Positions 14,950 to 20,032 of a stretch of DNA of 49,880 nucleotides are shown here, one piece after another (position 1 is the first letter of the stretch; each line of letters begins with the position of its first letter). The stretch comes from an uncultured bacterium (GTDB lineage: Bacteria > Patescibacteriota > JABMPQ01 > CAVVCK01), in the NCBI GenBank assembly GCA_963746775.1, contig CAVVCK010000002.1, positions 497,656 to 547,535 of the forward strand. Direction: 5' to 3'. Position numbers and translations under genes: made by a program. The notes under the pieces are model-generated. The model was given only the letters and a program-made list of their open reading frames with translations. It was not told the origin of the DNA and did no database searches.

Positions 14950-15144
14950 TATATTTATTATTCACAGCTGTGATTAACACAATTTCGTGTTTTTTTTATT
15001 TATTATAATACCATCCCTGAAATTTGTCCGCCTCTCTGCCTCCATTAGCGGATGCACCGTTAGAGGCGCATATCAGAAGATTCGCCGTTTAAGGCGAATA
15101 ATTTGTTTGGAAATTGTAATTTGGTAATTTGCAATTTTATATAA

Positions 15145-15835
15145 TGGGTCCGGGAGGAATCGAACCTCCGACCAATCGGTTATGCTTCCTGCTACGATTT
15201 TCATCGCCTCTTTCGAGTTTGTAGGCTGGACTGTCTCTTATCTAATATAATATATTAGATCTTGCCGTACAGTCTCTACACCTTTCTTGTTATTACAAGA
15301 TTTGGCTCGGGATTGTCATATTTTGATTTTTATCAAAATTTAGATTTCCCCGAATTTGACAAGTTTTACTTATTAATATTTTAATAAGTAGCCCTTTGAC
15401 AGATTAACATATTTAAGTAAAATAAAGTTATGAAACAATTGACTAACTGTAAAATTTGCAAAGAAAAATTACACGGCAAACAAAAAAAATATTGTTCTAT
15501 TGCCTGTAAAAATAAAGCATTGCAAAGTTATTCAGCTCAAAAAAAACGTGGTTTAAAGAGAAAGCTTGATTTAATAAAGGCACGAGGCGGTTGCTGTTCA
15601 GTTTGTAGTTACAAAAAGAATTTAGCCGCACTTACCTTTCATCATATTAATTCAAATAAAAAATTTAAATTAGATATAAGATCTCTTTCAAACCGTACTT
15701 TAAATACTATTCTTGATGAAGTTAAGAAATGTATTTTAGTTTGTCATAATTGTCATGCTGAGATGCATAACCCTCACTTAAATTTAGCTAATTTGTTTAA
15801 CGAGCCGACTGCTCTAACCGCTGAGCTACGGACCC
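15145..15835 (-). tRNA. tRNA with anticodon CAU (Met or Ile2), interrupted in the anticodon loop by a group I intron
   Basis: The 5' exon 15835-15803 reads GGGUCCGUAGCUCAGCGGUUAGAGCAGUCGGCU. The 3' exon 15184-15145 reads CAUAACCGAUUGGUCGGAGGUUCGAUUCCUCCCGGACCCA. Acceptor, D, anticodon and T stems all pair, and the joined loop is CUCAUAA. CCA is not encoded. Confidence 0.85.
15185..15802 (-). mobile_element. group I intron (IC3-like, tRNA anticodon-loop type)
   Basis: Conserved core strands are GUCAAAUUCGGGGAAAUCUAAAU, GACAAUCCCGAGCCAAA, GAAAGGUGUAGAGACUGUACGGCAAG and AAGAGACAGUCCAGCC. Pairable helices: P2, P3 CUUGUC/GGCAAG, P7 GACUG/CAGUC, P8, and two GAAA-capped P9 hairpins. A U precedes the 5' splice site and the last intron base is G. 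Confidence 0.8.
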
Positions 15836-15843
15836 ATAAGTAG
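15430..15843 (+). CDS. HNH homing-type endonuclease, encoded antisense to the intron
   Basis: CSVC...FHHIN...N...LVCHNCHAEMH is the zinc-finger HNH motif; 137 aa. The last 14 codons (NEPTALTAELRTHK) read antisense through the tRNA 5' exon. Confidence 0.8.
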   Translation: MKQLTNCKICKEKLHGKQKKYCSIACKNKALQSYSAQKKRGLKRKLDLIKARGGCCSVCSYKKNLAALTFHHINSNKKFKLDIRSLSNRTLNTILDEVKKCILVCHNCHAEMHNPHLNLANLFNEPTALTAELRTHK

Positions 15844-15863
15844 AAGTTCAAAAATTTGAGCCT

Positions 15864-16769
15864 CTACGTATGAGTTAATTCTCTGTATACTAACGTCCAC
15901 AAAGTAGATTTAAATGTATTTAGAATTGCACCAATAAATATAAATAACACACCGATTATCAATATACCCAAAATTATTAACAAAATACCACCAATTATAC
16001 CTGCCCCGAAGTGAATAATTGTTCCTATTAATATTAATGGAATACCAAATAATAAACCCAAAAATAACAAAGTAATTAATATTATAGCAGAAATAGCTGC
16101 ATTAATGGCAAACAAAATAATTGAAATTAAAATTGAAACTAATAAATTATCTTTAAAAATATTAAAACCAATTTTAATAGCTGGTATTAATTTCTCTTTG
16201 TTAATAACTATAATACGCGAAGCATAATTTGAAGTAAAGCTTATTATAATTACTAAAGGTATAAAGATAACAATAGCTAAAAGCGCTAATATAAATCCTC
16301 TAAAAGACATATTAAGAATAAAAAGCATTACAACAGGCAAGCCTAATATAGCTAATCCTATTATAATCAATAAGGCAGATAATATTTGTAATACTAATAT
16401 TTTCCAAAAATACCTTAAGCTTGATTTAAAAGCTTTAGAAAAATTAGACTCCCCTGTTTCTTCAATTTCATTTACTCCAACAATTATAGCACCTTGTGAA
16501 GTGGTTTTTAAAAAAACCATTACTAGCAACACGGCTATAACAATAAAAGTAACAATCCCAACTATGGCTATATTTTCAAAAACTAATCCTTCGCCTTTCT
16601 TGATAATATTAAAACTTTGATTATTATCTATCTTATTATAAAAGCTGCTAAAATTACCATTAAAACTGCTGCTTAAGGAAGACCCTCCCAAAAACAAACC
16701 AAAAAACCATAAAAATTTGTATTTCCCTGTTATATGCCAAGCTCTTTTTATTAACTTCCAATAATCCAT
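15864..16769 (-). CDS. polytopic membrane protein, unknown function
   Basis: 301 aa with about 6 long hydrophobic segments rich in I/L/G. No recognisable motif. Confidence 0.55.
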   Translation of the reverse strand: MDYWKLIKRAWHITGKYKFLWFFGLFLGGSSLSSSFNGNFSSFYNKIDNNQSFNIIKKGEGLVFENIAIVGIVTFIVIAVLLVMVFLKTTSQGAIIVGVNEIEETGESNFSKAFKSSLRYFWKILVLQILSALLIIIGLAILGLPVVMLFILNMSFRGFILALLAIVIFIPLVIIISFTSNYASRIIVINKEKLIPAIKIGFNIFKDNLLVSILISIILFAINAAISAIILITLLFLGLLFGIPLILIGTIIHFGAGIIGGILLIILGILIIGVLFIFIGAILNTFKSTLWTLVYRELTHT

Positions 16770-18629
16770 TTATTTATCATCTTTAATTTCTTTTTCTTTT
16801 TTTTCAACTTTTTTACCATCCATTAATTCTTCAAATTCATCTCTTTCAATTGTTTCTTTATCTATTAACCTCTTATATATTTTATTTAATTTATCTTTAT
16901 TCTCCAACACAATTTTCTCTGCTTTAGTTTGACCTTGAACAATAAATTTCTTTACTTCTTTATCTATTTGAGCAGCCACTTCCTCGCTATAATCTCTTTG
17001 TTCTGATATATCTCTACCTAAGAAAACTAGTTCGTCTTTTTGTCCAAAAGTCATAGGACCCAAAACATCTGACATTCCATACTGCATTACTAATCTTCTA
17101 GCTAATTTCGTGGCCTCACTCAAATCATTAGTAGCCCCAGTAGTTATATCACCAAATATAATCTTTTCTGTCACATACCCGCCCATCATTACAGCCAAAT
17201 CATCTAAAAATTCCGCCTTAGAATGAAAATGTCTATCTTGATCGGGTAATTTCAGAGTGTATCCAGCTGCCCTGCCTCTAGCTATTATGGAAATTTTATG
17301 AACAGGATCAGTATTAGGTAATAAATGTGCTATTAGAGCATGTCCTGCTTCATGATAAGCTGTAATATCTTTTTCATTTTTAGACATAACTGCACTTTTT
17401 CTCTCTGGCCCTAACATTACTTTTTCTATAGAATCAAGTATATAACGTAATATTATTTTTTTCTTTCCTAATTTAGCTGTAAGTATTGCTCCTTCGTTTA
17501 ATAAATTTTTTAAATCTGCACCAGAAAAACCAGGAGTCCTCTGAGCTACTATTTTTAAATCAACATCAGCTGCCATTGGTTTTCCTTTAGCGTGTATTTT
17601 TAAAATCTCTATTCTATCTTTTATGTCTGGTAAACCTAGAGTTACTTGACGATCAAAACGACCAGGACGCAGTAGCGCCGGATCTAGTACATCCGGTCTA
17701 TTAGTAGCGGCAATTACTATCACATTTGTATCTTGTTCAAATCCATCCATTTCAGTTAAGATTTGATTTAGGGTTTGCTCTCTTTCATCATGACTACCTC
17801 CAAGGCCTGCTCCTCTTTGTCTGCCTACAGCATCAATCTCATCAACAAAAACGATACAAGGTGAATTCTTTTTAGCTTTATCAAATAAACTACGTACGCG
17901 AGAAGCACCAACACCAACAAACATTTCCACAAATTCTGAACCAGAAATATGAAAAAATGGAACACCAGCTTCACCTGATACTGCTCTAGCTAACAATGTC
18001 TTACCTGTTCCCGGAGGTCCCATTAATAAAACTCCCTTAGGAATTTCTGCACCCAAATCTTTAAACTTTTTAGGATTTTTTAGAAAATCTACTACTTCCC
18101 ATAATTCTTCTTTGACTTCTTCTGATCCAGCTACATCTTTGAAAACTGTCTTCTTTTTATTTTTACTTTCTTCAGCTTTCTTGGCACTACTTTGTCCAAA
18201 CATCATGGCTCGATTGTTTCCTTTTTGTAGAGATCTTGTCATAAAATATATAAAGACAGCAATAAAAGCAAAAGGAATTAAAAATGGTAAAACATTAGCA
18301 GCAAATAAAGCTAAGCCTGATTTTTCAACTATTTGAATATTTACTTGGTTTAATTTTTCCTGATCTACCCCATAATTTTTTAAGGTTTCAGTTAGAGAAG
18401 ATTCTACCTCTTTACGTGCTACTAAATCTGCTCCATCTTTTGGTTTAATTGTTAGTTTATTTTCCTCAACACTTATTTTTTCAATTTCATTATTATTAAT
18501 TTTATTAGCCACATCTGATAATGATATTTCTTCAGGTTGAGTCAGGGGAACTTGCCACATAGCAAATATACTCGCAATAACGAGGAATATAATAAAAGCA
18601 ATGGCAATATTCTTAGCTAGGTTTTTCAT
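16770..18629 (-). CDS. ftsH: ATP-dependent zinc metalloprotease FtsH
   Basis: Walker [14 protein letters not shown], the second region of homology, and the HEAGHAL zinc site. Two N-terminal TM segments. Confidence 0.95.
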
Positions 18630-20032
18630 TAAATTTTAAATAATTTTATTTCTAAAATGTCCTTAGAATTTTTATTAGCTTGAAATCTTCTATCGCCTCT
18701 ATACTCTCCAATCCAGGCAATTTCATCTTTATTATTAACAATTAGCGGAACTAGGTCTCTTTTATCTAAATCAATTTTCTTATTTATAAAAAAATCCTTA
18801 ATTTTTTGGCTACCCCCTAGACCTTGAGGATAAAATCTATCTCCTTTTCTTCTCGTTCTTATAAATAATTTTCTCCCTGTTTTACTCAAGTCGATATAAC
18901 ACCTATTTTTACTTATTCGACCACATCTGTCAACCTGCCTTGTTCTAAATTTTATATTAAATTTAGAAATTTCCGTCTCTCCATTTACTTTTAAACCTAT
19001 TTTTTTAAATACAGCTAACTGATTTTTTTTTCTTATTACTATCTTATCATAAATTTTTATAATTTCTATATCTTTAAGATATTTTTTTGATCCGCTCTTT
19101 GAATTCTGCAATAATATTAAAATTTCTTTAATAATTGGCAATGAAACTTCTTTGCAAAACTTTTCATTCAAAATATATTTTAATAATCTACGCTTTAGCG
19201 CTGGGTGCAGATTATTAAATTTTTTTAAATTAATTTTATATTCTTCTTTATCTTTTTTAACTAATTTTTTATATAGATCTTTAGTTAAATCTGAAATCAA
19301 ATCATTATCATCCTTAATTATATTAGAATTTTCAAATAAAATATTTTTTATATTCAAATTATAGTTTTTTTCTAAGCAAGGAATTAATTGGTGCCTTATT
19401 TTATTACGCCTAAATTTTATATCTTTATTCGTTTTATCTTCTCTGTACTCTATCTTATTTTTCTTCAAATAAGCTAATATTTCACTTTTATCAATATTTA
19501 AAAGCGGACGAATAATCTTATTATTTTCAATCTTCATCCCCGATAAACCCGATAATCCTGATCCTCTTAAAAAATGCATTAAAATAGTTTCTGCTTGATC
19601 ATCCTTATTATGAGCCACAACAATTCTATTAGCTTTTTCTAATTTTAAAATTTTATTAAAAAATTCATATCTAATTTCTCTAAAATATTCTTCTAGGTTT
19701 TTTGCGCAGGAACTCAATTCTCGGTACCGAGAATTGAGTTCCGACACGTCTTTTTTATAGCTTTCTGGTTTAATGTTTTTACAGTATAATTTGGTTCTAT
19801 ATTTTTTTGCTAAATTTCTTACGAATTGTTCGTCCAATAAAGAATCTTGTTCTCGAAAATTATAATTAACATGAGCTAAAATAATTTTTATACCCAATTT
19901 TTTTCTCAAAGAATACAAAATATTAAAAAGACAAACTGAGTCAGGCCCGCCAGAAATACCCAAAATAATTTTATTACCTTTTTTAATTAAATTATTTTCT
20001 TTAATTGTTTTTAGAACTTTTTCTTTTAACAT
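18629..20032 (-). CDS. tilS: tRNA(Ile)-lysidine synthase
   Basis: PP-loop GISGGPDS; 467 aa. It lies directly upstream of ftsH with a 1-nt overlap, the conserved tilS-ftsH neighbourhood. Confidence 0.85.
   Translation of the reverse strand: MLKEKVLKTIKENNLIKKGNKIILGISGGPDSVCLFNILYSLRKKLGIKIILAHVNYNFREQDSLLDEQFVRNLAKKYRTKLYCKNIKPESYKKDVSELNSRYRELSSCAKNLEEYFREIRYEFFNKILKLEKANRIVVAHNKDDQAETILMHFLRGSGLSGLSGMKIENNKIIRPLLNIDKSEILAYLKKNKIEYREDKTNKDIKFRRNKIRHQLIPCLEKNYNLNIKNILFENSNIIKDDNDLISDLTKDLYKKLVKKDKEEYKINLKKFNNLHPALKRRLLKYILNEKFCKEVSLPIIKEILILLQNSKSGSKKYLKDIEIIKIYDKIVIRKKNQLAVFKKIGLKVNGETEISKFNIKFRTRQVDRCGRISKNRCYIDLSKTGRKLFIRTRRKGDRFYPQGLGGSQKIKDFFINKKIDLDKRDLVPLIVNNKDEIAWIGEYRGDRRFQANKNSKDILEIKLFKI

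Follow-up and report, generated by a model that had tools for sequence, protein, structure and literature searches.

The locus described here lies in a 49,880-nucleotide stretch of contig CAVVCK010000002.1, which was analysed as a whole and is called the window below. At this locus a gene for a tRNA with the anticodon CAU is split by a group I intron, and the P1 loop of the intron, about 370 nt long, is the antisense of an open reading frame (ORF) for an HNH protein of the homing-endonuclease kind (Table 1). The two minus-strand halves of the tRNA gene join to a 73-nt cloverleaf with the anticodon loop CUCAUAA. ARAGORN in intron mode reports a tRNA(cat) with a 618-nt intron at this place, in agreement with an earlier note that had read the locus from its letters; the default mode, run over the whole window, does not detect the split tRNA. 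The host gene is best read as tRNA-Ile2, on which the lysidine synthetase TilS acts.

Owing to a shared C, two splice junctions are conceivable, U33/C34 and C34/A35. Because only the first of these places a U ahead of the 5' splice site and a G (15185) at the end of the intron, as group I rules demand, the junction is set at U33/C34. The U ahead of the intron and the G at its end recur in 73 of 74 related loci. Both exons are identical to those of the closest relative (L352).

Table 1. Features of the split tRNA locus, with positions counted from the first letter of the window
Feature	Position	Strand	Basis or remark
tRNA-Ile2(CAU) 5' exon, tRNA positions 1-33, ending in U33	15803..15835	minus	ARAGORN intron mode and sequence
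Group I intron, 618 nt	15185..15802	minus	First base C15802, terminal (omega) G15185
tRNA 3' exon, C34 to discriminator A73	15145..15184	minus	CCA not encoded
Gene for the putative HNH homing endonuclease, 137 aa	15430..15843	plus	N-terminal Cys4 zinc ribbon and HNH domain
Sigma-70-like promoter of the HNH gene, TTGACA-16 nt-TAAAAT	15396..15423	plus	11 of 12 matches
Internal CAUAAC, repeating bases 1-6 of the 3' exon	15427..15432	minus	CAU is the complement of the HNH start codon
Internal guide sequence GGGCU	15390..15394	minus	GGGC invariant in 67 of 67 relatives; hairpin fold
P1 extension, 5' strand (intron nt 7-16)	15787..15796	minus	Pairs with 15399-15408
P1 extension, 3' strand, closing the ORF-bearing loop	15399..15408	minus	On the plus strand, -35 box and spacer of the HNH promoter
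Ribozyme core	15188..15390	minus	Rfam match and covariation
P2	15390-15367	minus	
P3	15363/15261	minus	
P4	15354-15306	minus	
P5		minus	
P6	15300-15285	minus	
P7	15274/15229	minus	Pseudoknot
P8	15260-15240	minus	
P9.0/P9	15225-15188	minus	
Two GAAA hairpins	15217-15208 and 15207-15194	minus	

The ribozyme and its conservation

The Rfam model Intron_gpI (RF00028) matches positions 15204-15410 of the minus strand over the full model length with 62.6 bits (E = 3e-15). The match was obtained from a separate 1.2-kb region with laxer filters and exceeds the gathering score of 50 bits; the covariance-model scan that the earlier note had proposed thus bears out its group I core. Consistently, 20 of 20 related loci give a match at the gathering threshold (52.9-85 bits), just upstream of the HNH start and on the opposite strand. 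The intron has a compact core, a P2, no P5abc and a P9.0/P9 region with GNRA hairpins, which are features of subgroup IC3, and its core strands, of the kind common to the tRNA introns of Azoarcus and Anabaena, match the IC3 seed sequences of Williams 2020 (bioRxiv 10.1101/2020.01.27.920355). The subgroup was assigned by the set of helices and by strand matching, and the GNRA tetraloop in L2, an IC3 criterion that serves as a tertiary anchor, is found in the family and is missing from the window copy. All the helices that the earlier note had paired by hand, namely P2, P3, P7, P8 and the two GAAA hairpins of P9, are present.

The structure of the core is conserved at the level of base pairing. 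In an alignment of 67 cores, which begins 18 nt ahead of the guide sequence and takes in the first 8 nt of exon 2, RNAalifold recovered P2, P3, P4, P5, P6, P8 and the P9 region, and P7 was then added as a pseudoknot before pairs were counted. A pairing of the guide GGGC with the 3' strand of P7 and a J6/7 hairpin, both proposed by RNAalifold, were judged spurious and removed. Standard pairs fill 96.5% of the cells, against 32-44% when the partners are slid by one to three columns. Compensatory changes occur in 39 of the 55 core pairs, and every helix except the invariant P4 covaries; P7, for example, has an A-U pair in 35 sequences and a G-C pair in 31. The window copy has one non-standard pair among the 55, compared with a family mean of 2.2, and compensating changes accompany its departures from the consensus in P5 and P8. 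Selection acts on the structure of the ribozyme.

P1 is formed by the guide sequence GGGCU (15394-15390) and exon bases G30-U33 together with intron base C1 (15806-15802). The U.G wobble at the splice site, U33 (15803) with G15393, and the terminal G15185 are both as the earlier note described them. Beyond P1, about 16 bases at the beginning of the intron pair across the family with about 16 bases preceding the guide sequence. Cognate strands fold with -16.3 +/- 3.5 kcal/mol and non-cognate ones with -9.7 +/- 2.8 kcal/mol. This difference indicates that the P1 extension covaries and closes the long loop.

The antisense HNH gene and its promoter

The HNH gene runs against the intron, and its last 13 codons and stop codon complement the tRNA 5' exon and 8 nt beyond it. 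The antisense loop and the read-through into the exon are just as first noted, and the protein matches HNH families of PHROG with E = 1e-17 to 1e-14. An alignment of 23 homologues has invariant H71/H72, N88, N107, H109 and H113, with the HH...N...H set that an HNH nuclease should have, as well as two invariant CxxC pairs and an N-terminal Cys4 ribbon. An AlphaFold2 model has a mean pLDDT of 82, and a sequence search against the Protein Data Bank (PDB) gave no significant match to a solved structure. The ratio of non-synonymous to synonymous substitution rates (dN/dS) of the gene is 0.25 against L352, at a synonymous distance (dS) of 0.18, and 0.13 against L353; the former locus shares the neighbourhood on the bactofilin/DUF4446 side and the latter shares both sides (DUF4446, DUF7544, ftsH). 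These ratios show that the HNH protein is maintained by purifying selection.

The end of the ORF varies among relatives. Among 72 loci, the stop falls exactly on the A opposite U33 in 30, and the frame reads through into the exon in 26, including the window; in the remaining loci the ORF is broken or stops a few codons earlier. The read-through is therefore an incidental trait of certain lineages. Most of the 23 aligned proteins have in common a C-terminal 'IEPTALTTEL', which is the translated complement of the tRNA 5' half. A functional role of this exon-encoded tail was considered and set aside, because the tail is absent in most relatives and the residues concerned (125-137) are disordered in the predicted model. 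Some HNH relatives are 250-360 aa long (P0121-P0126 and others) and align with the query in two to four separate regions, apparently with the complete zinc-ribbon/HNH unit repeated in tandem along a single chain.

The promoter of the HNH gene, TTGACA-16-TAAAAT, is the top promoter-like site of the region, and its -10 box lies 6 nt ahead of the ATG. The earlier note gave the boxes and their distance correctly and located them inside the ribozyme core; they lie instead in the P1 extension and L1, and the DNA of the -35 box and spacer also provides the 3' strand of the P1 extension. When 58 loci from several phyla are aligned on the ATG, T-12, A-11 and T-7 of the -10 box (TAnAAT) are kept in 57, 58 and 57 of them, respectively. 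Within the 57 nt upstream of the ATG, only the complement of the guide sequence and a GTT at -3 to -1 are otherwise conserved to that degree. Because the -10 box stands at the canonical sigma-70 distance, transcription is predicted to start at the A of the ATG (15430), and the HNH mRNA is probably leaderless. A leaderless start, if true, would explain how the gene is expressed across phyla with very different ribosome-binding signals.

An internal CAUAAC stands at the HNH start codon. As CAUAAC(YG), it matches at least 6 nt (6-9 nt) of the start of exon 2 in 52 of 55 relatives and is absent in endonuclease-less relatives. On the tRNA-sense strand, exon-1 GGCU and the internal CAUAACYG flank the coding sequence and jointly rebuild the uninterrupted target. 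The internal copy may be the footprint of an invasion, an operator or mere context of the start site. The enzyme is predicted, most likely, to nick or cut intron-less tRNA-Ile2 genes at or near GGCU^CAUAACC.

Distribution, mobility and the proposed homing cycle

The element belongs to a large family. A clustered protein database holds at least 217 HNH homologues with 55-92% identity, and about 1,966 clusters at 50% identity match the HNH protein at E <= 1e-10. In a scan with a single genome for each species, 229 loci encode an HNH relative, and the layout was inspected in the best 80 of these. A split tRNA(CAU) lies on the strand opposite the HNH gene, in the same place and orientation, in 74 of the 80. 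Their introns measure 594-661 nt, except for one of 1307 nt, and all follow the pattern GGCU / intron...G / CAUAAC. ARAGORN in intron mode often misplaced the boundaries and mislabelled relatives as Leu, Ser, Thr or Phe, and the boundaries were reset by hand from this pattern. The hosts within the candidate phyla radiation (CPR) are Saccharibacteria, Peregrinibacteria/Peribacteria, Gracilibacteria, Doudnabacteria and other Patescibacteria; other hosts include many Anaerolineae/Chloroflexota, Bdellovibrionales, Armatimonadota and a Latescibacteria genome. The 1307-nt intron, in a metagenome-assembled genome (MAG) of Anaerolineae (L007:527-1908), has about 600 extra nucleotides between the HNH start and the core, and its Rfam score is weak (29 bits); it may be a nested insertion or a product of decay.

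The intron, its endonuclease gene and the tRNA gene also occur apart from one another. Endonuclease-less introns of 196-301 nt split the same tRNA class at the same site in Saccharibacteria, Anaerolineae, Parcubacteria, Peribacteria, Bacillota and a deltaproteobacterium. One of them (L098) has a core 90-92% identical to that of a related endonuclease-bearing intron (L006), and a clean indel of about 397 nt in L1 sets the two apart. In a second such intron (L104), the 5' strand is all that is left of the P1 extension, which suggests a deletion derivative. The search for intron-less alleles in related genomes, also proposed in the earlier note, found more than 120 with an identical GGCUCAUAACC site in the same lineages, including Saccharibacteria, Gracilibacteria and Anaerolineae. 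L264 has an intron-less tRNA gene in the corresponding position after ftsH, with an identical acceptor stem.

Free-standing HNH genes form a further class. In two MAGs of Gammaproteobacteria (L070:1040-1960 and L076:1040-1960), an HNH homologue with 51-56% identity precedes, at a distance of about 80 nt and in divergent orientation, a tRNA-Ile2 gene with an Azoarcus-type intron after U36 (CAU/AA; Rfam 61 and 102 bits), a layout that looks like collaborative homing. In a Chloroflexi MAG (L072:1150-2020), an uninterrupted tRNA-Ile2-like gene is followed closely by a homologue in convergent orientation. The anticodon stem-loop of this tRNA gene is GCACU-CUCAUAA-AGUGU, in contrast to ..CGGCU-CAUAACCG... 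in relatives, and may represent a variant target resistant to the enzyme. Two other homologues (L058, L060) are free-standing away from tRNAs. Viral HNH relatives have 34-56% identity, and on five IMG/VR viral contigs (L336-L339, L344; 40-56% identity) the HNH genes are embedded in phage tRNA arrays and run antisense to the tRNAs. A DNA search against phage genomes returned nothing relevant. The wider HNH family seems to specialise on tRNA loci. The existence of endonuclease-less introns, intron-less alleles and free-standing HNH genes together indicates that the element is mobile.

These observations lead us to read the locus as a composite mobile element that is still live and occupies the tRNA-Ile2(CAU) gene of a Patescibacteria genome akin to Doudnabacteria, with a probability of roughly 0.8. 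In the precursor tRNA, exon GGCU and the first intron base would pair with GGGCU about 410 nt downstream to form P1 with its U33.G wobble, and a P1 extension of 9 bp would close the long loop. Guanosine would then attack after U33, the terminal G (15185) would dock and the exons would be ligated. C34 of the product could be converted to lysidine only after ligation, by the TilS encoded about 3 kb away. The HNH gene would be transcribed against the tRNA from the sigma-70-type promoter inside the intron, and a leaderless mRNA would need no Shine-Dalgarno match in a new host. The endonuclease would cut or nick an intron-less allele, and repair from the intron-bearing copy would spread the intron and the HNH gene together, which is homing.

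It is conceivable, and we put it forward tentatively, that the HNH gene, with its -10 box and leaderless ATG, is a self-contained cassette workable in many phyla, a specialist of tRNA genes (above all tRNA-Ile2) that is bounded by the halves of its own target GGCU^CAUAACYG and is seen at every stage from a free-standing endonuclease to a composite mobile intron. Under this reading the stages would be free in phage tRNA arrays, beside a tRNA-Ile2 gene with an ORF-less intron, antisense in L1 and, finally, lost by deletion. The internal CAUAACYG would then be the footprint of an invasion at a target-like exon-1/intron junction, or an operator for autorepression.

The most durable rival grants a functional intron and takes the HNH gene for a separate passenger, a free-standing endonuclease cassette directed at tRNA genes that lodged in L1 and now moves or persists mostly without regard to the ribozyme; the two would spread by collaborative (trans) homing instead of as a unit, and the protein might also serve as an autorepressor or maturase. 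We regard it as somewhat doubtful in its own right. It draws on the homologues beside Azoarcus-type introns, beside the intact variant tRNA-Ile2, away from tRNAs and in phage tRNA arrays, on the common occurrence of endonuclease-less introns, and on the target halves GGCU and CAUAACYG flanking the coding sequence, as in the picture of endonuclease-gene invasion (PMC3984707). However, the HNH gene sits inside the intron in the same place and orientation in 74 of the 80 inspected loci. Once it is inside, ordinary homing moves both, so that this rival concerns the origin of the gene and its extra roles and is compatible with the composite mobile element.

Endonuclease-gene invasion and collaborative homing have known cases in phages (I-TevII in T4 sunY, cyanophage psbA, mobE/I-TevIII; reviewed by Hausner et al. 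2014, PMC3984707), and the target-like flanks in the window parallel the observation on I-TevII/sunY from which the invasion hypothesis arose. There, as here, the flanks of the ORF mimic the exon junction, and free-standing relatives adjoin ORF-less introns at the same target gene. However, the phage cases concern protein-coding genes and ORFs in sense orientation, whereas one flank in the window is a real exon, and free-standing, endonuclease-less, endonuclease-bearing and deletion-derivative stages of the window family are all found in cellular genomes. The surviving intermediates in public genomes make the hypotheses of endonuclease invasion and collaborative homing testable with natural sequences.

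Host tRNA, rival readings and known systems

The identity of the host tRNA bears on the second rival, that the split gene encodes an elongator tRNA-Met, which we consider improbable. All 74 split loci have G3-C70 (5' end GGG). G3-C70 (or A3/U70), as opposed to the C3-G70 of Met and fMet tRNAs, is the discriminator of tRNA-Ile(CAU) and excludes both of the latter (Silva 2006, PMC1635315). Isotypes were typed by explicit comparison with E. coli ileX and metT; a BLAST search of the spliced tRNA against E. coli was discarded, as its best match was tRNA-Arg(ACG) through similarity of the T arm. The family has a mean identity of 0.77 to ileX and 0.67 to metT, and 70 of 73 members are closer to ileX. 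The margin of the window copy is small (0.767 against 0.730), and the most similar endonuclease-less intron is labelled 'Sba135.Met.2Ug' by Williams 2020, so that tRNAscan-SE may type this tRNA class as elongator Met. The margin and the label favour the rival. However, the elongator-Met-like CAU tRNAs of CPR genomes form a separate class, which starts with GGC or GCC, has C3-G70 and leans toward metT. The uninterrupted CAU tRNAs near split genes are initiators (CGCGGGG...) and clearly different, and initiator features are absent from the window tRNA, which has G1-C72 and C11-G24 rather than a C1xA72 mismatch and A11-U24. It also carries C29-G41 and the wobble G27.U43. The identity of tRNA-Ile for IleRS requires C29-G41, and E. 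coli ileX has G27.U43 as well. The resemblance to tRNA-Ile2 pointed out in the earlier note is thus supported.

C34, the base modified by TilS, is the first base of the 3' exon, and lysidine formation must therefore follow splicing. The gene order on the minus strand is tilS, ftsH, a gene for a DUF7544 membrane protein and the split tRNA-Ile2 gene (15145-20032). tilS (18629-20032) looks intact, and its distance of about 3 kb is as first noted. A functional link was considered and set aside: tilS immediately precedes ftsH, and relatives likewise have the tRNA shortly after ftsH, so that the proximity probably reflects where the tRNA-Ile2 gene sits. The window FtsH shows 68% identity to the FtsH of a Patescibacteria MAG and 61-63% to FtsH proteins from Doudnabacteria, and on a Doudnabacteria contig (L046/L260) a tRNA split by the same intron type lies shortly downstream of ftsH. 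The promoter-like site closest to the tRNA (15983-15955) is within the DUF7544 gene, and the tRNA may therefore be co-transcribed with tilS, ftsH and the DUF7544 gene. CCA, which the window gene does not encode, is encoded in most relatives from Saccharibacteria.

A third rival, in which the antisense layout is primarily regulatory and the HNH transcript or its transcription tunes maturation of tRNA-Ile2 and hence AUA decoding, as an antisense RNA or a roadblock, appears still less probable. L1 and the entire 5' exon of the precursor would both be perfectly complementary to the HNH mRNA, the promoter is strictly conserved, and ATA codons are frequent (90 of 2093, about 4%, in six neighbouring genes and the HNH ORF). 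However, selection acts at the protein level with the catalytic residues kept, 30 of 72 relatives have an ORF that already ends at the splice site, and the endonuclease-less and intron-less alleles show that hosts manage without the cassette.

Several further points weigh against a live, splicing element. The whole-window Rfam scan at the gathering threshold returned tRNA-Gly only and missed the intron; because 62.6 bits exceeds the cut-off, the miss is attributed to speed filters acting on a sequence with 32% GC. P1 has 5 bp, two of which are G.U, and P10 has at most 1-2 bp. The L2 loop of the window copy (15378-15381, minus) is AAUA, in place of the GNRA tetraloop that about 95% of relatives possess; this sole clear uncompensated departure from the family consensus could weaken a tertiary contact. 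The loop of about 370 nt and convergent transcription could hamper folding. The HNH protein stays below the thresholds of Pfam and NCBIfam, and a Foldseek search against the PDB placed HNH nicking enzymes and T4 endonuclease VII on top at non-significant values (best E = 0.15). Finally, a second intact tRNA-Ile2 gene is possible elsewhere in the genome, beyond the 50 kb covered. Yet a decaying relic, a pseudogene that splices poorly, with AUA decoded by another tRNA-Ile2 copy, is the least probable reading even with the weak P1 and P10, the loop L2, the miss by default Rfam filters and a genome view of 50 kb in its favour, since the exons are flawless and unchanged from a relative whose HNH gene has diverged, broken core pairs are fewer than the family mean, the substitutions in P5 and P8 are compensated, the gene occupies the place after ftsH at which relatives retain a tRNA of this class, and ARAGORN in default mode finds no other CAU tRNA in the 49.9-kb window.

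The intron class itself is already catalogued. Williams 2020, whose list of tRNA-intron settings runs to 21, has introns of CAU tRNAs at U33/C34 as fMet.2Ug, Met.2Ug and Ile2.2Ug, and notes high frequencies of such tRNA introns in metagenomic assemblies from unnamed phyla. The Met.2Ug and Ile2.2Ug introns share the insertion site of the window intron, and the core of Sba135.Met.2Ug is closely similar to the window core; however, the representatives given are short and ORF-less, and no endonuclease family, orientation or promoter is given for them. The earlier note knew of no description of tRNA group I introns as a feature of CPR-like genomes; CPR tRNA genes with such introns are, however, mentioned in passing by Lui 2021 (PMC8172020). 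Antisense endonuclease genes, which the note called rare in bacterial introns, are on record solely for introns of nuclear rDNA (PMC3679873, PMC9548176). The locus is no isolated case and belongs to a large family spread over several phyla. The words antisense, orientation and promoter are absent from a 2014 review of bacterial group I introns, and the literature searched contains no description of the HNH family or of the antisense promoter-bearing arrangement, although papers beyond the reach of the search may exist. The antisense promoter-bearing HNH cassette in L1, its multi-phylum spread and the coexisting evolutionary intermediates set the element apart from the known intron class. The arrangement appears undescribed, and within the literature searched this would be the first family of group I introns in bacteria to carry an antisense endonuclease gene.

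Among tRNA introns, the closest counterparts are those of cyanobacteria and Azoarcus. The intron of the cyanobacterial tRNA-fMet(CAU) gene with I-Ssp6803I (Synechocystis PCC 6803; fMet.2Ug) is likewise of the IC3 type, lies at U33/C34 in the context CU/CAUAA, measures about 650 nt and encodes a homing endonuclease that targets the anticodon region, all of which resembles the window element. However, its host is an initiator tRNA rather than tRNA-Ile2, its enzyme is a PD-(D/E)XK protein of 150 aa rather than a zinc-ribbon/HNH protein, and no conserved internal leaderless promoter has been described for it. The I-Ssp6803I ORF is, to our knowledge, sense-oriented. The intron of the tRNA-Ile(CAU) gene of Azoarcus sp. 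BH72 (Ile2.5Ug) shares the isoacceptor and the IC3 architecture with the window, and its core strands AAAUUCGG.GAAA, GCCAAG, GGUGUAGAGACU and AGUCCAG are near-identical; in contrast, it follows U36 instead of U33, has about 205 nt and carries no ORF.

Among endonucleases, the compilation of Haugen et al. 2007 has I-Ssp6803I as the one tRNA-intron enzyme, and its intron-encoded HNH enzymes are all in phage protein genes. I-HmuI, I-BasI, I-TevIII, I-TwoI and I-PfoP3I are such group I intron-encoded HNH enzymes, several of which nick; unlike the window gene, they all lie in protein-coding genes and in sense orientation. The HNH enzyme of the window would thus be added to the sole known bacterial tRNA-intron endonuclease. 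Antisense endonuclease genes in nuclear rDNA introns (Dir.S956-2 / I-DirII; L2066; PMC3679873, PMC9548176) occupy a peripheral helix (P1, P2, P6, P8 or P9) and are expressed independently of the host transcript, as proposed here. However, those introns are eukaryotic, interrupt rRNA genes, encode His-Cys box enzymes and use Pol II-like signals and spliceosomal introns, whereas the window element is bacterial, lies in a tRNA gene and combines an HNH enzyme with a sigma-70 -10 box and a predicted leaderless start. It is therefore an analogue of that group and not a member. An own -10 box with a leaderless start would be a simple way to express a protein from within a non-coding RNA gene in many phyla.

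The failure of default ARAGORN and of the whole-window Rfam scan to report the gene is of practical relevance. If standard annotation misses it too, genomes seem to lack tRNA-Ile2, the essential AUA decoder, which would distort assessments of tRNA sets and of completeness for CPR and Chloroflexota genomes. The enzyme is also a possible tool, as a small endonuclease (about 120 aa) whose presumed target, an anticodon-loop sequence of at least about 11 bp, is highly conserved.

Related introns were observed in other tRNA genes. Twelve loci (L083, L085, L086, L089, L105, L109, L113, L116, L117, L119, L125 and L134) have U33/C34 introns in initiator tRNA-fMet genes with the 3' exon CAUAACCCGAAGG... 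and long P1 regions, in Saprospiraceae/Lewinella, Rhodothermales, Desulfococcaceae and Uhrbacteria, which suggests a much wider distribution of the fMet intron class known classically from cyanobacteria. An endonuclease-less group I intron of 236-247 nt splits tRNA-Phe(GAA) at L071:1942-2261 and L275:6957-7267. The former, in a Moranbacteria MAG, scores 57.4 bits with Rfam and lies about 35 nt upstream of a split tRNA-Ile2 gene in the same tRNA cluster; the latter is reported by ARAGORN alone. In the window, a GC-rich hairpin of 7 bp (ATTCGCC-GTTTAA-GGCGAAT, 15080-15099) lies 45 nt downstream of the tRNA 3' end. Its T-run is on the plus strand only, and it could terminate the plus-strand ORF region upstream but not the tRNA.

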